A stretch of 64,000 nt of DNA from Vulcanimicrobiota bacterium (GTDB lineage Bacteria > Vulcanimicrobiota > JAJTBE01). The DNA lies in contig JAIORV010000160.1 in assembly GCA_021107945.1 (NCBI GenBank), forward strand, positions 31,996 through 95,995, written 5' to 3'. Positions 6,939 through 61,521 of this stretch are shown piece by piece (within the stretch, counting starts at the first letter, position 1; each line of letters begins with the position of its first letter). Made by a program: the position numbers and the translations under genes. Under the pieces are notes generated by a model. That model did not search any database, was not told the DNA's origin, and saw nothing but the letters and a program-made list of their open reading frames with translations.

Positions 6939-7021
6939 AGGAAGACGGAGGGCAGAAGCCGGAGGACATAAGCCGGACGGCGGATTGCGGATGACGGATC
7001 TCATTTCCCGCCTCTAATTTT

Positions 7022-7117
7022 GTAGGAGGGACGTCCCCGTCCCGATAAAAACAGATGACGGATCGCGTATCCCATTTCCCGCCTCCAATTTTGTAGGAGG
7101 GACGTCCCCGTCCCGAT
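7022..7117 (+). repeat. Two REP copies (7022-7046, 7093-7117)
   Basis: Exact 25-mer gtaggagggacgtccccgtcccgat: GTAG foot plus GGGACG/CGTCCC stem. Confidence 0.95.
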
Positions 7118-7156
7118 ATGTGTCCTTAATCCATATCTCTATCCTTCAACCAACAA

Positions 7157-7660: not shown

Positions 7661-7736
7661 GGTGTCACCTTATTTATTGTATTCTATTATCTGAATTAGG
7701 ATAAAATGGCATATGGAATAATCGGATGGGGATAAT

Positions 7737-7824
7737 ATCGGGACGGGGACGTCCCTCCTACAGATCCGGCATCCGACCTCTGACATCTGACATCCGTTTA
7801 TCGGGACGGGGACGTCCCTCCTAC
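7737..7824 (-). repeat. Two REP copies (7737-7761, 7800-7824)
   Basis: atcgggacggggacgtccctcctac is the reverse complement of the 25-mer. Confidence 0.95.
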
Positions 7825-7915
7825 AGATCTGGAAATGGGAAATGGGAAATGAGAGGCGGGAGACGGGATCCATCCTCCGTTCTCCGGCATCCGTTCTCTG
7901 GCATCCGTTCTCTGT

Positions 7916-42082: not shown

Positions 42083-42101
42083 ATCTATGAGGAGGAAAAA
42101 T

Positions 42102-43772
42102 ATGAATATGTTTTGCTTTCAATGTCAGGAAACACTGAAAAACACGGGATGTGTAATGGCCGGGATCTGCGGAAAGAGTGCGGATGTGGCGACTCTTCAG
42201 GATCTTTTGATCTATCTCTTAAAAGGAATATCAGTATATGGAGAAAAGGCGAGAAAACTGGGACACAACGATGAAGAAGTCGATATATTCGTTGCGAGGG
42301 GCCTTTTTACAACAATAACAAACGTCAACTTCGACACAGACAGGTTGGTAAAGCTTATTGAACAGGCATTCAAGGCCAGGGAGAAGATCGAGAATATCTT
42401 TTTGAATGCATACAAGGAGAAACATGGCGAGGATTTTACAGGCAAATTACCTGAACCTGCGAGATGGAAATCCGGTGACGGAATCCGCAGTTATCTTGAA
42501 AAAGGCCGCAATGTGGGAGTATTGGCAGAAAAAAATGAGGACATAAGATCCCTAAAACAGCTTCTCACATACGGTCTGAAAGGAATTGCCGCATATGCGG
42601 ATCACGCCTACATACTGGGCAAAAAGGACGACAGCATATTTGCGTTTCTTCAGGAAGCTCTGGAGGCTACAACGAGGGAATTCATCACTGTCGATGAGCT
42701 TGTCAATCTCGTTATAAAGGCGGGAGAAATGGGCGTAACAACAATGGCACTCCTTGATGAAGCCAATACATCACGATACGGAAATCCGGAGCCTACCGAG
42801 GTTTATACCGGCACAAGGGCAAAGCCTGCAATTCTTATAAGCGGCCACGATCTTCTTGATATGGAGGAGATTCTCCAGCAGACCGCCGGCAAGGGAGTGG
42901 ACATTTACACCCATGGCGAAATGCTCCCGGCAAATGCATACCCCGCCTTCAAGAAATACGATCACTTTGTGGGCAACTACGGAACCTCCTGGTTTAACCA
43001 GCAAAAGGAATTTGACAAATTCAACGGCGCGATAATAATGACGACAAACTGCATCCAGAAACCCAAAGAGAGTTACAAGAACAGGATCTTTACAACAGGA
43101 CTCGTGGCATGGCCTGATGTGGCGCATATTTCTGACAGGGAATTTGGGAAGCCTAAAGATTTTTCACTGGTTATCGAAAAAGCACTGGAGCAGGGCGCAC
43201 TGGAAGAAATTCCCGGCAAGAAAATCATGATAGGATTCGCCCGGAATTCCCTCATGGCTTCAGCAGACAAAATAATCTCAGCCGTGAAATCCGGCAAGAT
43301 AAAACGCTTCGTTGTTATGGCGGGATGTGACGGACGTTATAAGAATCGTGAATATTATACCGAGGTAGCCAAAAATCTCCCGGAGGGCACGGTTATCCTG
43401 ACCGCAGGATGCGCAAAATACAGGTACAACATGCTGGATCTCGGCGATATCGACGGAATCCCCAGAGTGATAGACGCGGGGCAGTGCAATGACTCATATT
43501 CCCTTGCATACATCGCTCTTCAGCTTGTAAAAGCATTCGAAGCCGACAGCATTAACGATCTGCCGATATCATTCGACATTGCATGGTACGAGCAGAAGGC
43601 GGTAACAGTCCTCCTGGCCTTGCTGTATCTCGGAGTAAAAGGCATAAGACTGGGACCAACCCTGCCGGCATTCCTGTCACCGAATGTGGCAAAAGTCCTG
43701 GTGGAGAAATTCGACATAAAACTCATCGGTACGGTGGAGGAAGATATTGATGCCATGATGTTGGGAAAATGA
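42102..43772 (+). CDS. hcp: Hybrid cluster protein (hydroxylamine reductase)
   Basis: MFCFQCQET...GC...GICGK, SGHDL, THGEMLP, MAGCDG, DAGQCNDSYS, WYEQKA. Confidence 0.98.
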   Translation: MNMFCFQCQETLKNTGCVMAGICGKSADVATLQDLLIYLLKGISVYGEKARKLGHNDEEVDIFVARGLFTTITNVNFDTDRLVKLIEQAFKAREKIENIFLNAYKEKHGEDFTGKLPEPARWKSGDGIRSYLEKGRNVGVLAEKNEDIRSLKQLLTYGLKGIAAYADHAYILGKKDDSIFAFLQEALEATTREFITVDELVNLVIKAGEMGVTTMALLDEANTSRYGNPEPTEVYTGTRAKPAILISGHDLLDMEEILQQTAGKGVDIYTHGEMLPANAYPAFKKYDHFVGNYGTSWFNQQKEFDKFNGAIIMTTNCIQKPKESYKNRIFTTGLVAWPDVAHISDREFGKPKDFSLVIEKALEQGALEEIPGKKIMIGFARNSLMASADKIISAVKSGKIKRFVVMAGCDGRYKNREYYTEVAKNLPEGTVILTAGCAKYRYNMLDLGDIDGIPRVIDAGQCNDSYSLAYIALQLVKAFEADSINDLPISFDIAWYEQKAVTVLLALLYLGVKGIRLGPTLPAFLSPNVAKVLVEKFDIKLIGTVEEDIDAMMLGK

Positions 43773-43795: not shown

Positions 43796-43946
43796 TTTTT
43801 CACCACAGAGGACACAGAGATCACAGAGTTTTAAACGGACTTAATTATATTGAAATTCACTAATTCCCTGATGTTCGGGTGGAGGCTGGTCGGAAGACCA
43901 GCCTCCATTGCTGTAAAATCGGGTTGGGAGGGGTCTGAATAAATAC
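43796..43946. mobile_element. MITE-like family D copy
   Basis: caccacagaggacacagag...tggaggctggtc-ggaa-gaccagcctcca...ggtctgaataaatac. Confidence 0.6.
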
Positions 43947-44054: not shown

Positions 44055-44375
44055 TTATTTATTGAGCGATTTCAAAATAAACCTTCTGTCCTCAATGGGT
44101 ATCAATTCAAGTTTTGGGGGGCTTCTCTTTTCCCAGGGTGCAAGATTATTTTTTATCATCCATTCTCCAATTTCTTTCTTGCGTAGTTCAGGGCAATCTT
44201 TCCAGAAAGTCCCCTCCACAATATTGACATCAATCGAATTGCCATCACTAAATTCAATATTTACCGAAGACCATTCTTCCTTGAAATACCTCTCCCTGTC
44301 TTTTTCATTAATACTAATACCGTACCCGGAGCCTCTTTTTTCTCGTTTGCCGTTACTCCATCCTGATACCATCAT
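44055..44375 (-). CDS. Hypothetical protein (106 aa), coupled to the CBS-HEPN gene
   Basis: ATGA overlap with the upstream gene; W/G/P-patterned sequence (GWSNG..GSGYG..FWKDCPEL..IGEW..PW..PP). Confidence 0.8.
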   Translation of the reverse strand: MMVSGWSNGKREKRGSGYGISINEKDRERYFKEEWSSVNIEFSDGNSIDVNIVEGTFWKDCPELRKKEIGEWMIKNNLAPWEKRSPPKLELIPIEDRRFILKSLNK

Positions 44376-45163
44376 GCCTGAGATGCCTCCTCACAATTAT
44401 TAATTGTGCTTTCAATCTTATCGGATACTTCTATAACTTCCGACCAGGATGAACCGGAGATAATATCATAGCCGTGTGCAATGTTATTTCTAAGCTTTTC
44501 TACTTTATCAAAAATTTTATTAGCTTTTTCCTTAGACTTAATGCCAATTAGGCTAAACAATTCATCCTTTTTCCTGATTATTGTGCATTTATCACATAAT
44601 TGCAGGCAATCAAAGACATCTAATTCTTCATTTCTGACTCTTATATCCTCATAAAAAGATTTGGCTTTTTCAATCCTTTTTTCTGATAATAGACTTTCCA
44701 ATTCTCCCTCGTCGCAAAATTTTCTAATCATACGAGTGAAATGCATCTCCAACAAGTTGATCAAGGCAAAAAGAAACATGCGCACAGGAGCTTTTCTTAA
44801 ATCTCCTTTTGTCACAATATACTTTATTTCATTATTTTCAAGAATAAACAACCAACCTTTATCCTTAAGTATATCTAGGCATTTTAATATTGGAGTTGAT
44901 TCCGCCACGATATCTATTGGCTTGATGGTCTCAACTTGTTGAGAACAAATCCCAGTTGTTAACTTTGATTGGATTACATACCCGATAATTACTCCGCTGG
45001 ATCTTACAGGCATTATGTCAAAGTTTTCGTCTTTCATTCGATCTCTAACTTCCGAACAATTATCATTTTCGTTGACAGATTTAACTTCTTCTGCAATATG
45101 TTTGACTGATATTTGATTAAGAACATTTCTCAATTCATCCAAGTTTGTTCTTAGCTGTTTCAT
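44372..45163 (-). CDS. CBS-pair + HEPN (RxxxxH) domain protein
   Basis: CBS motifs FDIMPV..IIGYV and LFILE..YIVTKGDL; helical C-terminus with LLEMHF..IR and LRNNIAH; AAGGAG before ATG 45163. Confidence 0.8.
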   Translation of the reverse strand: MKQLRTNLDELRNVLNQISVKHIAEEVKSVNENDNCSEVRDRMKDENFDIMPVRSSGVIIGYVIQSKLTTGICSQQVETIKPIDIVAESTPILKCLDILKDKGWLFILENNEIKYIVTKGDLRKAPVRMFLFALINLLEMHFTRMIRKFCDEGELESLLSEKRIEKAKSFYEDIRVRNEELDVFDCLQLCDKCTIIRKKDELFSLIGIKSKEKANKIFDKVEKLRNNIAHGYDIISGSSWSEVIEVSDKIESTINNCEEASQA

Positions 45164-45211
45164 AATGATACTCCTTTCATTTAATTCAATCATCATTCAA
45201 TCGGGGAAAGG

Positions 45212-47932
45212 TTATTCTCTTGCCCCGTGCATGCGGAGGAGTTTTACCATGTCTGTATGACCTATCTGCTTCGCATAGCGCAATGGAGTCCTGCCTTTAT
45301 CATCCTTCACATTAATATTGGCGCCATTGGACATGAGAAGTTCTACTACTTCACTGTTGCATCCCGCTGCCGCACATAGCAACGGCGTACTGCCATTATT
45401 ATCCTTTGCATTAACATCGACACCTTTGGATATGAGAAATTCTGCTACTCCGATGTTAATAGTTGCTACCCAATGCAACGGCGTACGGCCTTCATCATCC
45501 TTTGTATTAACATCGGCACCTTTAGATGTGAGAAGCTCTGCTAAATCCGTATGGCCACTCACACATGCCTCGAGCAATGGTGTCCATCCACTATTACTCT
45601 TTGCATTAACATCGGCACCATTGGACATGAGAAACTTTGCTACATCGGGGTAGCCTTTCTGTGCTGCCAAGTGCAACGACGTCAAGCCATATTCATTCTT
45701 TGCATTAGCATCGGCACCCATTGATATGAGAAGTTCAGCTACTTCGTTATGGCTTTCCTGTACCGCGATGTGCAATGGCGTTTCTCCTTCATAACCCACC
45801 ACATTAACATTAGCACCTTTGGATATGAGAAGTTCCACCACTTCAATGTTGCCATACTGTGTCGCTATGTGCAATAGCATCCCACAATCCTCATCCATTG
45901 AATTAATATCGACATCTTTTAGTATGAAAAGTTCCACAACATCTGGATGTTCATTAGAATATGCTAAATCCATCGGTGTAAAACCCTCATAATCCTGTGC
46001 ATTAACATCAGCACCTTTGGATGTTAGAAGTTCCGCTAATTTGATGTCGCCATTATCTGCAGCGCTATGCAATGGCGTCCAAATCGAATTATCCCCTGCA
46101 TTAACATCAGCACCCTTTGATATTAAAAATTCTACTACCTCTATATGTCCATTGATAACAGCGCTGTGTAATGGCGTACGACTCGAAATATCCTTCGCAT
46201 TAACATCAGCACCTCTTGATACGATAATTTTTACTATCTCTATTTGCCCCATGAAAGCCGCCAATTGCAATGGCATCCAGCCCATATCATTCTTAGCATT
46301 AATATCAGCACCCATGGAGATTAGGAGCCTAACTTTATTTATATCCCCATTGCATACCGCTTTATGAAGAGGGACTTCTCCATTTATGCCTTTTGAGCTG
46401 TTTTCGACGAGGAGTCTTACCATGTCTGTATGACCGTAAAAAGTCATCAAGATTAATGGCGTTTCGCCGTAATCATCAATCGCATTAACATCAGCACCCT
46501 TTGACATTAGAAGTTCCACTACCTCTGTATGTCCATTAATGACAGCGCTGTGTAATGGCGTACTACTCGAAAGATCCTCCGCATTAACATCAGCACCTTT
46601 GGACACTAAAAGTTCCACTACCTCTGTATGTCCGTCGGTAGCAGCAAAGTGTAATGGCCTCTTCGAAAGAGCCTTCGCATTAACATCAACACCTTTGGAT
46701 ATGAGAAGTTTTGCTACTTCGATGTCGCCATACTGTGCCGCGATGTGCAATGGCATCTCGCGAATATTATTCTTCGCATTAACATCAGCACCTTTGGATA
46801 TGAGAAGCTTTGCTATATCTATTTGCCCCATGAAAGCCGCGATGTGCAATGGCGTCTCGCCCTTATCATTCTTAATATTAATATCAGCTCCCATTGATAT
46901 TAGTTTTTTAGCTTCATCTATTTCCCCGCCTTTTATAGCTTTATGAAGAGGAGTCTCCCCATCTTCGTCCCGTTTATTTACATCAATTAGTTGAACTGGG
47001 CTAACGGATTTAGAATTTAACATCTCCAGGATTTTATCCGCTGATTCAGGCCTGTTGTCTCTGTTGAAATCGAGCATTGACGTAATTGTATCGTTTAAAT
47101 AATCAGGGACTGTTGAATTCAGGTCTTTTATCGGCTCGAATTTGAATGGCTCACGGGAGGGATCCTGAGGGTCTATTCCCGTTAAAAAGTAGTGCATCAT
47201 TGCCCCCAAGGAATACAGGTCGCTTCGGGGGTCTGTAAATCCCTTGTATTGCTCCGGTGAGGAGTAACCGGGAGTGCCGATTAGGGTTCCCTTCGTTTGA
47301 GGCCTAAACAACCGTGCGATTCCAAAGTCTATCAGGAATACGGTTTTATTCTGAATCATGACGTTGGAAGGTTTCATATCACGGTATATCACAGGCGGCT
47401 TCTGTGAGTGGAGATAGGAGAGAATACTGAGAATTTGCCGGAAATAATTGAGAGATTCGTCAACAGCCAATGGTCTGCCCATTCGTTCATTCATCATAAT
47501 TTCCATGTCTTTACCTTCGATAAATGTCATAACAAGGAAATGAGCAGGTTTGCCGGAATCGGGATCATTTTCAATAAAGAAATCGCTTACATTGGGAAGT
47601 CCGCCGTGATGGAGCTTTGACAGGATACGCGCTTCCTCAAGGAATCTTTTTTTAGCATATTTCTCCTCTTCATTATTTCCAACGACCAGGAAGAGTTTTT
47701 TCACTGCAACAGATATACCAAGGCGAATGTCGTGTGCTTTATAAACACATCCCATATTCCCGGATTTTACGACGGTCTTTATTTCATAACGATTATCCAG
47801 TAATACAAACTTCTGAGTTCCTTTTTTGGGGAGTTGTCTGATCTGCTCTCCACATTCAAAGCAAAAGTATGCAGGATCAGGATTCTCCGCACCGCATTCG
47901 GGACAATATATCAGCAAATTTAACCCCCCCAT
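45212..47932 (-). CDS. Ser/Thr kinase with N-terminal Zn-ribbon and about 17 ankyrin repeats (no TM)
   Basis: CPECG..FCFECG; VAVKK, YRDMKPSN, DFG, GTPGYSSPEQ; TPLH.A...G...V..L..KGADVNA repeats. Confidence 0.95.
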   Translation of the reverse strand: MGGLNLLIYCPECGAENPDPAYFCFECGEQIRQLPKKGTQKFVLLDNRYEIKTVVKSGNMGCVYKAHDIRLGISVAVKKLFLVVGNNEEEKYAKKRFLEEARILSKLHHGGLPNVSDFFIENDPDSGKPAHFLVMTFIEGKDMEIMMNERMGRPLAVDESLNYFRQILSILSYLHSQKPPVIYRDMKPSNVMIQNKTVFLIDFGIARLFRPQTKGTLIGTPGYSSPEQYKGFTDPRSDLYSLGAMMHYFLTGIDPQDPSREPFKFEPIKDLNSTVPDYLNDTITSMLDFNRDNRPESADKILEMLNSKSVSPVQLIDVNKRDEDGETPLHKAIKGGEIDEAKKLISMGADINIKNDKGETPLHIAAFMGQIDIAKLLISKGADVNAKNNIREMPLHIAAQYGDIEVAKLLISKGVDVNAKALSKRPLHFAATDGHTEVVELLVSKGADVNAEDLSSSTPLHSAVINGHTEVVELLMSKGADVNAIDDYGETPLILMTFYGHTDMVRLLVENSSKGINGEVPLHKAVCNGDINKVRLLISMGADINAKNDMGWMPLQLAAFMGQIEIVKIIVSRGADVNAKDISSRTPLHSAVINGHIEVVEFLISKGADVNAGDNSIWTPLHSAADNGDIKLAELLTSKGADVNAQDYEGFTPMDLAYSNEHPDVVELFILKDVDINSMDEDCGMLLHIATQYGNIEVVELLISKGANVNVVGYEGETPLHIAVQESHNEVAELLISMGADANAKNEYGLTSLHLAAQKGYPDVAKFLMSNGADVNAKSNSGWTPLLEACVSGHTDLAELLTSKGADVNTKDDEGRTPLHWVATINIGVAEFLISKGVDVNAKDNNGSTPLLCAAAGCNSEVVELLMSNGANINVKDDKGRTPLRYAKQIGHTDMVKLLRMHGARE

Positions 47933-58009: not shown

Positions 58010-60355
58010 TCACCTCTTCTCGAACATTTTCGCCGCGATTACAGCTTGACCCAACGATATACCACCGTCGTTCGTGGGAACTCTTTTATGTATATATGTA
58101 TCAAATCCTTCATCTTCAAGCAAATAAAGTGATTTTTTTAACAGAATCATATTCTGGAACACTCCCCCGGACAGGGCAACCCTTTTTATCCCGGTTTCTT
58201 TTGATATTATTTCCGCTCCGAGCAAAATTACTCTTGCCATTGTGTTATGAAAACGCCCGGCAATTTTTAATTGAGAAACATTGTTTTTCAGATCATCAAT
58301 AATGCCTGAGAATATCGGCGCAGGATCAATAACAAAATTTTTATTAACCTTCGCGTCCTTCGTGTTTTCGTGGTAAAAATCAACTTCATATTCCCCGGTT
58401 TCATCTTCGTCCGCCATCATCTCCATTTCAATGGCCGCCTGTCCCTCAAAATTGCAGACACTCCTTATTCCGATGAGGGCGGAAACCGCGTCGAACAGTC
58501 TCCCTGCGCTGGAAATTTCAGGACATCCAATTCCCTTGTCAATCATTTTTCTTATAAATTCCACTTTTAATTTATCAACTTTGGATAAAAAATGCAAATT
58601 CAGATCAAAAATATCGTCCCCGTAAATATCATAAAGATATGCAAAAGCGGATCTCCAGGGTTCTTTTATTGCTTTCTCCGCGCCTGCAAGCTTCATGTAT
58701 TTTAACCGGATCCGACGGGTAAATGATTCCCTGTTTGCAATCATAAACTCGCATCCCCATAATTTTCCGTCAGATCCGTATCCCACACCGTCAAGGGCGA
58801 CGCCTATCACATCGCCGTCGATTTCGTTGTCTGCCATACAGGATACGATGTGGGCATGGTGATGTTGAACCTGAACCTTTATCTCTATGGGCGAATCGAG
58901 GGCGTATTGCGTGGAAAGATAACGGGGGTGGGCGTCGCAAGCAATCACTTGGGGGGTAATATCAAAAAGCTTCCTGTAATGCTTTATTCCCTCTTCAAAT
59001 GATTGCATTGTCTCAATGTTTTCCAGGTCGCCTATATGATGACTTACAAACGCATGATTTCCCCTGTAAAGGCAGAATGTGTTCTTCAACTCCGCTCCCA
59101 CGGCAAGAACCGGGACAGAGGAAGTATGTTTCAGTATCACCGGGAACGGCACATATCCCCTGGATCTTCTCAGCGGATACTCATTCCCCTTGAAAACTCT
59201 CATCACGGTGTCGTCACATCTCGTATGAATGGGGCGGTTATGTATAAGGAAATAATCGGCAATATGGGAGAGTCTGCCTTTTGCCTCCTCGTCAATGTAC
59301 GATATAGGCTCCTCGCTTACGTTTCCCGATGTCATTACTAACAGAGATTTGAACTCGTTCATTATCAGGTGATGAAGCGGTGTATATGGTAACATTACGC
59401 CAAGGTAATCATTATTCGGAGCTATGGATTTCGCCATGTCATTTTCCGGCAGATTCTTTAAAACAACAATCGGACTTCGATAAAATTTCAGTGTTTTTTC
59501 TTCTTCCATGCTGAACTTACATATTTTTCGAACGGAATTTATATCCGGAGCCATTATCGCAAATGGCTTATCCTCCCTGTACTTTCTCTTTCTAAGAGTT
59601 GAAACAGCCGTTTCGTTTTTTGCATCCACTGCAAGGTGATATCCCCCAAGCCCCTTTATGGCGATGATTCCGCCCTTTTTTAGAATATCCACAGCACTTG
59701 ATATTACTTTGTCGGAATCTTCCGTTACTACATTCCCCCGGTTATCAAGCAGAGTTATATGAGGTCCGCAAACCGGGCAAGCCACCGGTTGAGCATGGAA
59801 CCGCCTGTCGGAAGGATCTTCATATTGTCCCCGGCAGTAATCACACATGGGGAATCCGGCCATTGATGTGTTTTTCCTGTCGTACGGAACATCGGTGATA
59901 ATCGTGAGCCTTGGTCCGCAGTTGGTGCAATTGATGAAGGGGTATTTATACCGGGGATCGGCGGGATCATTCATTTCCCTGATACAATCCTCGCATGTGG
60001 CGATATCGGGTGATATCAGCACAGTCTTTGCTCCGACATCCCTGCTTTTTCTTATGACAAAATCAGTGTATCCCTGGAGTTCATCACTCATTTCTTCAGA
60101 AATATTCTGTATATCGGAGAGCCCCGGCGGATTGGCGGAAAGGTGATCCCGGAATCTGCAAAGTGTATCTTTCTCTGCCTCAACCTCAATTGTAACACCC
60201 CTGCTGTCGTTTAGAACATACCCGGCAAGCCCGAATGATTTCGCCATATTATAAACGTGGGGTCTGAATCCGACACCCTGAACGATTCCTTCTATGAAGA
60301 GCTTTAGATGCCCGGTATTGTTGCTTTGTATGTTTTGCGCCTTTTGCATGGTCAT
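58010..60355 (-). CDS. hypF: Carbamoyltransferase HypF
   Basis: GIVQGVGFRP, CTNCGPR, RRFHAQP.ACP.CGP, QHHHAH, NDGGISLGQA; start approximate. Confidence 0.97.
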   Translation of the reverse strand: MTMQKAQNIQSNNTGHLKLFIEGIVQGVGFRPHVYNMAKSFGLAGYVLNDSRGVTIEVEAEKDTLCRFRDHLSANPPGLSDIQNISEEMSDELQGYTDFVIRKSRDVGAKTVLISPDIATCEDCIREMNDPADPRYKYPFINCTNCGPRLTIITDVPYDRKNTSMAGFPMCDYCRGQYEDPSDRRFHAQPVACPVCGPHITLLDNRGNVVTEDSDKVISSAVDILKKGGIIAIKGLGGYHLAVDAKNETAVSTLRKRKYREDKPFAIMAPDINSVRKICKFSMEEEKTLKFYRSPIVVLKNLPENDMAKSIAPNNDYLGVMLPYTPLHHLIMNEFKSLLVMTSGNVSEEPISYIDEEAKGRLSHIADYFLIHNRPIHTRCDDTVMRVFKGNEYPLRRSRGYVPFPVILKHTSSVPVLAVGAELKNTFCLYRGNHAFVSHHIGDLENIETMQSFEEGIKHYRKLFDITPQVIACDAHPRYLSTQYALDSPIEIKVQVQHHHAHIVSCMADNEIDGDVIGVALDGVGYGSDGKLWGCEFMIANRESFTRRIRLKYMKLAGAEKAIKEPWRSAFAYLYDIYGDDIFDLNLHFLSKVDKLKVEFIRKMIDKGIGCPEISSAGRLFDAVSALIGIRSVCNFEGQAAIEMEMMADEDETGEYEVDFYHENTKDAKVNKNFVIDPAPIFSGIIDDLKNNVSQLKIAGRFHNTMARVILLGAEIISKETGIKRVALSGGVFQNMILLKKSLYLLEDEGFDTYIHKRVPTNDGGISLGQAVIAAKMFEKR

Positions 60356-60413
60356 AGGTTTTAAGCTGTTATGGATAAATCCTGCTAATTTAACCCCATA
60401 GCAAAACATAAAT

Positions 60414-60450: not shown

Positions 60451-60486
60451 ATAGTCAAATCGGTTAACAGGCTTTATTCGTGCCTA

Positions 60487-61521
60487 TTACTTTTCCGTTT
60501 TTTCTACCGCTTCTTTTGGTACTTCTTTTACCTCTTCTTTTACCGCTTCCTTTGGCACTTCTTTTACGGCTTCTTTTGGCACTTCCTTAATCGCTTCTTT
60601 TTCTACCTTATTATCAGTCTCTTTTACCGCTTCTTTTGGCACTTCTTTTACTGCTTCTTTTGGTGCTGCCTTTGATGCATCTTTTGGCGCATCTTTTAGC
60701 GCTTCTATTGCCGCTTTTTTTATTTTCTCATCTGAGCTGTCTTTTAAAGCTGACAATTCCTTAGCAACATTGGGATCTTTCATCCCGCTGCTTTTCAGGA
60801 TTGCTATGGCGGCGACTTTCATCTCTGTGGTTTCTTTGTCGTCCTTTACTATGGCGAGTCCTATTTTATTGAGAGCTTCCTCGTTCTTTTCAATAAAGGC
60901 TCCTGAAGCTGGGCTTCCGATATTCTGCAGGATTTCCAGGCGCAGTTTTTTGTCTTTTGTTTTTCCGAAAGTTTCCAGTACCTTTGGTGTAATAATCTCG
61001 GGCTCATAATAATAAGTCAGAAAACCCCAGCAACCCTTACGATATTCCGGATCATCACTGGTTGTAACAACTTCTATAGCTTTCTCTCTGTACATTGCAT
61101 GATCAGCCCAATCCTCTCCCTTGTAATCAGAGATAACATATAATAAAAGCTCGTTGGCAGCTTTTTTCCTTACTGGAGGTCCGTTCTGGGCAAGTATGAA
61201 CAGGGATTCTATAAATACCTTGTCTTTTTTCTTGGCGTGTTCCTGTGCTTTGGCCTTGAGGGCTACAAACTCTTTTTCGAAGCGAAAGTCATCTTCGTGT
61301 TTGAATTTGTCCAGCGCCTCGAAAAGGGCTTCTGTTTCCTTGTCGAATTTCGAGGGAAGAACTTTGATACCGGGACCTTCATCGGGCTTCTCGCCCGGTT
61401 TGACAGGGGCGCCTTTTATCGCAGGGTCAGTAGGCTGCACCGGCGTTTTTTGCTGTGTGCATCCCAAGGTCATAAACAAGCCTATGACCAGAGCCGCGAT
61501 GATAAGTGTTCGCATTTTCAT
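60487..61521 (-). CDS. Lipoprotein with HEAT-like helices and a C-terminal KEAV/KEVP repeat tail
   Basis: Lipobox MTLGC; tandem KEAVKEVP units. Confidence 0.85.
   Translation of the reverse strand: MKMRTLIIAALVIGLFMTLGCTQQKTPVQPTDPAIKGAPVKPGEKPDEGPGIKVLPSKFDKETEALFEALDKFKHEDDFRFEKEFVALKAKAQEHAKKKDKVFIESLFILAQNGPPVRKKAANELLLYVISDYKGEDWADHAMYREKAIEVVTTSDDPEYRKGCWGFLTYYYEPEIITPKVLETFGKTKDKKLRLEILQNIGSPASGAFIEKNEEALNKIGLAIVKDDKETTEMKVAAIAILKSSGMKDPNVAKELSALKDSSDEKIKKAAIEALKDAPKDASKAAPKEAVKEVPKEAVKETDNKVEKEAIKEVPKEAVKEVPKEAVKEEVKEVPKEAVEKTEK

Follow-up and report, generated by a model that had tools for sequence, protein, structure and literature searches.

A gene on the reverse strand of a Vulcanimicrobiota contig encodes a tandem CBS pair fused to a helical domain that carries an R-x4-H motif, and it raises the question of what is sensed by the first half of the protein, what is done by the second, and whether the whole serves immunity or the cell's own physiology. 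The gene, here called the CBS-HEPN gene, lies in a stretch of 64,000 nucleotides (nt) of contig JAIORV010000160.1; this whole stretch is referred to as the window. An earlier note on the same DNA had proposed a ribonuclease (RNase) that is switched by energy charge or by an adenine-nucleotide signal and that causes dormancy or abortive infection. Our data suggest that the CBS-HEPN protein is a self-contained, ligand-gated RNase, encoded by an acquired accessory gene in this genome and most likely used in phage defence of the abortive-infection type, as is the E. coli protein DS-11; we hold this reading, taken as a whole, with slightly better than even confidence. The ligand-gated RNase is proposed because one protein combines a CBS pair with a HEPN domain in which the R-x4-H motif is conserved. 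As a molecular model, the predicted CBS-gated HEPN RNase is well grounded, being supported by the fold, by conservation and by the precedent of DS-11, and ligand binding, dimerisation, RNase activity and a role in defence are properties that we infer for the family.

A CBS pair fused to a predicted HEPN domain

The N-terminal half of the protein was recognised in searches of both sequence and structure. The Pfam model PF00571 matched two stretches (E 6.1e-9, 36.5 bits against a cut-off of 24), with the motif GYV (G61, Y62) in the first CBS domain and IVTKGDL (T118, D121) in the second. A whole-protein AlphaFold2 model built with 16 homologues consisted of two domains, with a predicted local distance difference test (pLDDT) value of 91.2 and a predicted template modelling score (pTM) of 0.85. 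When this model was submitted to Foldseek, 199 matches in the PDB were returned at E<=1e-3; the top ones were all CBS pairs, a probability of 1.00 was assigned to many, and they included 3fv6_B (E 5.2e-6) as well as DarB, CbpB, CNNM/CorC and CcpN. A search of PDB sequences with the protein gave a CBS domain as its sole match (E 0.082).

The C-terminal domain was modelled in isolation from 90 sequences and reached a pLDDT of 95.5. In an exhaustive structure search with VIA-align, the best match to this domain was AbiF (8vz6_B; Z 9.3, 137 residues aligned, root-mean-square deviation 3.3). The other matches included the C-terminal domain of AbiA (8oz7_A, Z 8.4), Csm6 (8jbc_A, Z 7.6; 4rgp_B, Z 7.0), a Cas ribonucleoprotein (Z 7.4) and HEPN toxins (7ae2_A, Z 7.3; 8xdj_A, Z 7.1; 5yep_B, Z 6.6), together with the AF_0298 HEPN protein, the HEPN domain of sacsin and Cas13h. 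Among the top 20 entries, five have HEPN in their titles (7ae2, 8xdj, 2hsb, 3o10 and 4nqf), two are Csm6 and one is Cas13h; AbiF, AbiA, Roquin, Swt1, HI0074 and SO_3166, which also stand in the top 20, we take to be HEPN proteins. Since Z values of 6-9.3 are middling for helical bundles according to the tool, the assignment rests on the consistency of the list and not on any single value. The NCBIfam Csm6 model TIGR02672 matched the HEPN part of the protein (E 8.7e-4), PF18735 is a precomputed match in two relatives (P0010 and P0206), and a PHROG of unknown function matched the protein at E 2e-6. No helix-turn-helix or other DNA-binding domain was detected on the protein with Pfam and NCBIfam. 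Together, the domain model and the structure search support a predicted HEPN fold for the C-terminal domain. Both the tandem CBS pair and the HEPN-type helical domain that the earlier note had read in this gene are thus borne out by the searches.

Conserved residues and size of the family

Residue counts were taken from an alignment of 149 cluster-representative relatives, and residue numbers refer throughout to the form of the protein with 263 amino acids (aa). The upstream glutamate (LLEMH) and the R-x4-H motif (RNNIAH) translate as the earlier note had described them. R225 and H230 were found together in 148 of the 149 relatives, the exception being a truncated protein, and in 16/16 close homologues; the position after R225 was occupied by N in 88 relatives and by D in 59, so that the motif reads R[N/D]xxAH. 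Position 139 was E in 146 relatives and D in 3. In the CBS pair, D121 was invariant (149/149), T118 was kept in 134/149, and position 62 was Y in 119 relatives and F in another 18. D121 belongs to a G-I-V-T-x-x-D motif and presumably corresponds to the Asp with which CBS domains that bind nucleotides contact the ribose. High conservation was also seen in the linker (K124, 141/149; P126, 143/149; R128, 141/149) and at C186 (144/149), D191 (140/149) and K192 (144/149). Because the conservation of the CBS, Glu and R-x4-H motifs across the 149 relatives far exceeds what chance would give, they are real and under selection.

Homologues of the protein numbered 16 in an index of 5.8 billion proteins, and when 1.84 billion cluster representatives were searched exhaustively, 1831 matched at E<=1e-3, of which 875 reached E<=1e-10 and 201 reached E<=1e-30. 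Nearly all of the cluster-representative relatives were 255-290 aa long and aligned end to end. Relatives were present in 303 species genomes, and a single-protein scan of metagenome contigs found no close ones. By its sequences, the CBS-HEPN family is a separate, large, unnamed and compact family, distinct from DS-11.

DS-11 as a precedent

DS-11 is a one-protein anti-phage system of E. coli with CBS and HEPN domains (WP_000257686.1; 1098 nt, 365 aa), and it was described in the DefensePredictor paper (Science 2026; PMC13092281). In that paper, the HEPN mutations R330A and H335A and the CBS mutation Y157A, of an aromatic residue taken to contact adenine, are reported to abolish defence, a dimer of DS-11 together with two molecules of ATP is predicted by AlphaFold3, CBS modules are cited as energy sensors, and the authors note that, before DS-11, none of the characterised defence systems had CBS domains (PMC13092281). 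A full-text literature search on CBS, HEPN and anti-phage returned nothing relevant beyond this paper and its preprint. DS-11 indicates that, in phage defence, a HEPN RNase can be gated by a CBS module. The idea put forward for the present gene is thus right in kind and its design is already published for another protein (PMC13092281); the present family is far larger than an E. coli curiosity.

The comparison with DS-11 was made with the NCBIfam model NF053863 ('DS11_antiphage, CBS domain-containing anti-phage protein'; equivalog cut-off 260 bits) and with a partial DS-11-type protein (L167, from genome G067, cut by a contig end). The partial protein scored 224 bits with the model. The alignment of the model to the CBS-HEPN protein formed one collinear stretch, from profile positions 82-284 of 305 to residues 24-230, and it ended at H230; a 274-aa form of the protein scored 35.7 bits (E 4.9e-9), and the CBS half alone 20.9 bits. 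Among the 149 relatives, 34 matched the model at E<=1e-3, the best at E 2.8e-10. When the family profile was compared with the partial protein by hhalign, the two were collinear over 188 columns, with GIVTxxDL placed on GIVTKKDL and LRNxLAH on IRNKFMH. The model found no match at E<=0.01 in the 330-347-aa relatives of genus g7 or in one of two haloarchaeal plasmid relatives, and the second plasmid relative scored 21.3 bits. No protein above the cut-off was found in 401 genomes of the phylum, and a word-indexed search with the family profile returned 69 proteins, all of them family members and none named DS-11.

Proposed mechanism

In the mechanism that we propose, the N-terminal CBS pair would bind an adenosine-containing ligand around the invariant D121 and the conserved aromatic residue Y62. 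The signal would then pass through the linker D-L-[RQ]-K-A-P-V-R-M into the first HEPN helix and would switch the RNase on or off. The predicted active site consists of R225, H230 and E139 and, by analogy with other HEPN enzymes, would most likely be shared by the two subunits of a dimer; cleavage of RNA would halt growth. The trigger may be a changed nucleotide pool or a nucleotide signal produced during infection.

A repeat search of the window found no CRISPR-like array, and Pfam found no cas or cyclase domain among the 22 neighbouring ORFs (open reading frames), in line with the earlier remark that neither a CRISPR locus nor a cyclase is adjacent. Synteny was counted at the loci of the best 80 of the 303 relatives in species genomes. 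Most family members stood alone, in that a counterpart of the small ORF that trails the gene here was seen at 0/80 loci, and such solitary genes fit a self-regulated effector.

Distribution and mobility

The CBS-HEPN gene is most likely accessory in this genome, as judged from its base composition, its patchy distribution and its relatives on plasmids. The GC content of the gene was 0.335 and that of its third codon positions (GC3) 0.311, compared with a GC content of 0.422 for the window and 0.466 for hcp (GC3 0.52), which agrees with the AT-richness noticed earlier. In three genomes from the same family or order, the protein was not found (0/3); of 40 others in the phylum, it turned up solely in those of one distant genus (6/6), with 28% identity and a C-terminal extension. 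Seven haloarchaeal plasmids carried full-length relatives with 21-24% identity, one of them between a transposase gene and an integrase gene.

The gene had also been described as inserted after hcp. The low GC content and the absence of the gene from the three nearest genomes make an insertion plausible, but neither borders nor an empty site could be demonstrated by comparison with these three genomes, because synteny ends at hcp (plus the cupin gene in one genome). Two genomes from the same order, G002 and G003, had hcp matches (L156 and L157) with two and one in-frame TAA codons, respectively.

On two haloarchaeal plasmids, a hypothetical gene of some 118 aa that runs divergently (L165, 3516-3872, and L166, 3533-3889, both on the reverse strand) lies ahead of the CBS-HEPN relative. 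Its size and distance were equal on both plasmids, and it may be a conserved partner in the haloarchaeal branch.

Evidence against a defence role and the housekeeping alternative

Several results weigh against a CBS-gated RNase of phage defence. No Pfam HEPN family exceeded its cut-off on the protein (HEPN_RiboL-PSP, E 0.01 and 16.2 bits against 28.4; HEPN_Cthe2314, 13.8 bits against 27.1), a Foldseek search of the isolated HEPN domain against the PDB gave no match at E<=1e-3, and the PADLOC matches to HEPN-motif and CARF-HEPN models were weak (best E 7.9e-4). With NF053863, the protein scored 36.4 bits (E 3e-9), below the 260-bit cut-off, and the HEPN half alone gave no match. The hhalign comparison of the family profile with the partial DS-11-type protein had a probability of 18.4% (E 0.0013), and a BLASTP alignment of the CBS-HEPN protein with it was not significant (E 0.036 over 39 residues). 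Because the similarity is weak, the DS-11 result transfers by architecture and not by orthology. Only two viral contigs carried a CBS-HEPN relative. The genomic surroundings belong to the same body of evidence: the neighbours in the window were housekeeping genes according to Pfam (hcp, a cupin, TetR, TIM and PMT-type glycosyltransferase genes and hypothetical genes), 43-46 of the 80 loci, from Microcoleus and allies, shared one neighbourhood, and of the 78 ORFs that neighbour the gene at eight representative loci, most were housekeeping.

The assignment of the protein as a DS-11 equivalog was ruled out on its score against the model cut-off and on its length (263 versus 365 aa). On one viral contig (L163, 4001-4741), the CBS-HEPN relative was spread over an ORF of 112 aa and an adjacent one of 108 aa and may be a split or broken copy.

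These surroundings bear on the alternative that survives best, in which the same CBS-gated HEPN RNase would serve housekeeping: it would sense a second messenger, or the adenylate or energy state of the cell itself, and would slow translation in starvation, darkness or stress by trimming or degrading RNA. The cyanobacterial synteny and the housekeeping neighbours make a physiological role a serious rival, although we rate it as unlikely on balance. The best 80 relatives (37-41% identity) came mostly from filamentous cyanobacteria and Neobacillus. The neighbourhood shared by many cyanobacterial species has a sigma factor gene and a cupin_7 gene upstream and ARD and Der GTPase genes downstream, and the exceptions among the 78 neighbour ORFs of the representative loci were two Uma2 genes plus TPR-CHAT (L070) and HNH_2 (L069). 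A large family that is widespread in species genomes would also suit a housekeeping role, as would the classical function of CBS modules as energy sensors, which is established and is also cited in the DS-11 paper (PMC13092281). Against such a role stand the patchy distribution in the phylum (6/40, in one genus, and 0/3 close relatives), the deviant GC content in this genome, the haloarchaeal relatives on plasmids beside transposases and the coupling of the gene to an ORF from a defence-associated family, described below. Moreover, the experiments on the CBS and HEPN architecture concern defence only (PMC13092281).

The ligand-switched RNase that causes abortive infection or dormancy, as put forward earlier, therefore divides into two parts. 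Its molecular part is upheld by fold, conservation and DS-11. Its biological part is weakened by the distance of the family from DS-11 and by the cyanobacterial copies, whose neighbourhood is one of housekeeping genes and not a defence island; the NCBIfam match to DS-11 speaks for defence, and the weak PADLOC matches speak against it. The family is both mobile and accessory (in this genome and on haloarchaeal plasmids) and chromosomal and syntenic (in cyanobacteria), and it is well suited to asking what nucleotide such RNases sense and whether they serve immunity, physiology or both.

A small protein family at the end of defence operons

The CBS-HEPN gene is directly followed by a 106-aa ORF, whose homologues of about 105 aa were collected from 61 metagenome loci (L086-L146). 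All of them opened at an ATG with MIVT/SxWNNG and shared invariant Trp, Gly and Phe positions. The small ORF had no match in PADLOC or NCBIfam, no Pfam match was found among 44 members (the best were scattered, at E 0.016), and no PDB sequence match (best E 0.2) and no PHROG match below E 0.075 were obtained. It was on no viral contig, and no second copy was present in the genome. In the ESM Atlas, a model of the small protein (pTM 0.78) had B3, EcoRII-N and NgoFVII_C as its named structural neighbours, with template modelling scores of 0.60-0.69; as a lead only, the family is possibly a DNA-binding barrel of the B3/EcoRII-N type.

The homologues trailed other genes, often with the identical 4-nt overlap. 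When 30 neighbour ORFs of these loci were searched with PADLOC, 12 matched defence models. HmaA preceded the small ORF in three cases at E ~1e-207 to 1e-210 and in one partial case, and HmaC was matched twice; the other matches were DrmMI/type IIG, a HamB-like helicase, PDC-S02/Mrr, two TIR proteins and SNase. What is new here is an unnamed family of small proteins whose genes are found repeatedly as the last ones of several known defence operons. Because the small gene that adjoins CBS-HEPN is of a kind that habitually closes such operons, a defence setting for the CBS-HEPN gene is modestly favoured.

At one of these loci (L095, 3825-4465), a toxin-antitoxin pair of MNT and a HepT-like HEPN protein directly followed the small ORF that trails HmaA, forming a stacked defence locus.

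A bolder proposal would see in the small ORFs an undescribed, portable DNA-binding family of the B3/EcoRII-N type that is carried as the last coupled gene of unrelated immune effectors (Hma, type IIG/DISARM-like, Hachiman-like, TIR and Mrr). Its members would serve these effectors in common, either sensing foreign DNA or regulating defence genes, and the small protein would form a new two-gene system with CBS-HEPN. We consider this a long shot.

Still less probable is a toxin-antitoxin pair, in which the HEPN protein would be the toxin and the 106-aa protein its antitoxin and/or a DNA-binding repressor of the operon. Such a pair would account for the 4-nt stop/start overlap (ATGA) with its internal GGAGG, HEPN toxins with small partners are known (HEPN-MNT structures were among the fold matches), and the ESM Atlas leads point to the small protein as a possible DNA-binding barrel. 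However, the two families do not co-occur: the small ORF was absent from the 80 CBS-HEPN loci (best tblastn E 1.2), and a CBS-HEPN relative was found at 0/61 small-ORF loci. The small ORF trails many unrelated genes, and solitary CBS-HEPN genes would have to be non-toxic alone. A complex prediction with two copies of the CBS-HEPN protein and the small-ORF product gave a score of 0.00 and a mark of 0.32, which weighs neither way.

The least probable alternative, that the HEPN-like domain is not a nuclease and the protein is a CBS-containing regulator or nucleotide-binding adaptor, could appeal to the sub-threshold Pfam HEPN matches, the empty Foldseek search of the isolated domain, VIA-align Z values of 7-9 that are middling for helical bundles, the JGI label 'predicted transcriptional regulator' of one relative (P0177) and the CBS domain of the repressor CcpN as the best whole-protein Foldseek match, but it is very hard to reconcile with an R and an H that are near-invariant at HEPN spacing and followed, after the R, by N or D, with VIA-align top rows that are almost all HEPN proteins, with the match to the Csm6 HEPN model and with the lack of any detected DNA-binding domain.

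Gene structure and neighbouring features

The CBS-HEPN gene is the middle one of three genes on the same strand, after a Ser/Thr kinase-ankyrin gene and before the 106-aa ORF (Table 1). It is separated from the kinase-ankyrin gene by a gap of 48 nt, and it sits downstream of hcp (42087-43772, forward strand), which is convergent to it. An ORF of 274 aa spans 44372..45196 on the reverse strand, with an in-frame upstream ATG at 45196. Translation almost certainly starts at the ATG at 45163, and the upstream ATG is probably unused, because AAAGGAG lies at 45171-45177, 7 nt upstream of the former, the P0001 copy has 263 residues and the homologues open with MKQL.

The hairpin between hcp and the 106-aa ORF had a computed folding energy of -37.1 kcal/mol (z -5.6), and a hairpin as stable was seen in 0/200 shuffles. 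It is likely to be a two-way transcription stop that marks the 3' end of the unit; it is missing from the consensus terminator scan because it has no T-run. Consensus scans of the sequence for promoters and terminators did no better than shuffles.

Kinase domains were matched 58 times in this genome and 23-56 times in its relatives, so that the family is strongly expanded. The kinase-ankyrin gene was rejected as a defence partner, its matches to PD-T4-6 and PDC-M72A being generic in a genome with so many kinase domains. At the eight representative loci of the CBS-HEPN family elsewhere, no kinase gene stood beside it.

Farther away in the window, two direct-repeat pairs were observed at 6983-7118 and 7736-7832 (65 nt with 89% and 34 nt with 97% identity). 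Both pairs share the core TATCGGGACGGGGACGTCCCTCC... in opposite orientation, and for this reason they suggest a small element with inverted repeats or one resembling a repetitive extragenic palindrome (REP) or a miniature inverted-repeat transposable element (MITE). An array of about 300 nt with imperfect repeats of 12-nt period was seen at 60455-60754, just beyond a hypF-like gene (58010-60409).

Table 1. Positions of the CBS-HEPN gene, its domains and motifs, and the adjoining features in the window
Feature	Position	Strand	Details
CBS-HEPN gene	44372..45163	-	263 aa; ORF, Shine-Dalgarno sequence, starts of homologues, AlphaFold2 model
CBS pair (Bateman module)	44795..45112	-	residues ~18-123; Pfam, Foldseek
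Predicted HEPN-fold helical domain	44375..44791	-	residues 125-263; opens with conserved linker KAPVRM
Glu139 (LLEMH), first HEPN helix	44747..44749	-	translation and alignment
R-x4-H motif RNNIAH, predicted catalytic	44474..44491	-	R225..H230; translation and alignment
106-aa ORF	44055..44375	-	ATG overlaps CBS-HEPN stop (ATGA, 4 nt); GGAGG at 44386-44390
Hairpin, perfect 11-bp	43881-43906	.	between convergent hcp and 106-aa ORF
Ser/Thr kinase-ankyrin gene	45212-47932	-	906 aa; zinc ribbon, kinase, ~17 ankyrin repeats (99-nt DNA period)

Comparison with known systems

The CBS-HEPN protein, read as a ligand-gated RNase of the abortive-infection type, resembles DS-11 most closely in its design. 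In each, a CBS pair precedes a HEPN domain on one polypeptide, both have the R-x4-H motif about 30 residues from the C-terminus (R330/H335 in DS-11, R225/H230 here), and both are usually encoded by solitary genes, for the CBS-HEPN family as counted at the 80 loci. In contrast to DS-11, the CBS-HEPN protein is about 100 residues shorter and has no N-terminal extension, the motifs KAPVRM and DCLQxCDK are the family's own and are not in the partial DS-11-type protein, and the gene in this genome overlaps a trailing small ORF.

With Csm6/Csx1, which are CARF-HEPN RNases ancillary to type III CRISPR, the protein shares the fusion of a nucleotide-sensor domain to a C-terminal HEPN RNase domain, and Csm6 was among the fold matches (8jbc_A, 4rgp_B); the sensor is a CBS pair here and a CARF domain there. 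In structure, the C-terminal domain was matched best by AbiF/Abi_2 (8vz6_B) and AbiA (8oz7_A), which we take to be HEPN-bearing abortive-infection proteins. They differ from it in sequence (11-18% identity), and the CBS-HEPN protein has no non-coding RNA partner or polymerase domain; its regulatory module is the CBS pair. The HEPN-MNT systems (HepT-MntA) have a HEPN fold with R-x4-H in common with it (7ae2_A, 8xdj_A, 5yep_B). No MNT partner was found beside the CBS-HEPN gene, whose neighbours are the kinase-ankyrin gene and the 106-aa ORF, the latter without an NTP_transf_2 match; unlike the HEPN proteins of those systems, the CBS-HEPN protein has a sensor domain of its own.

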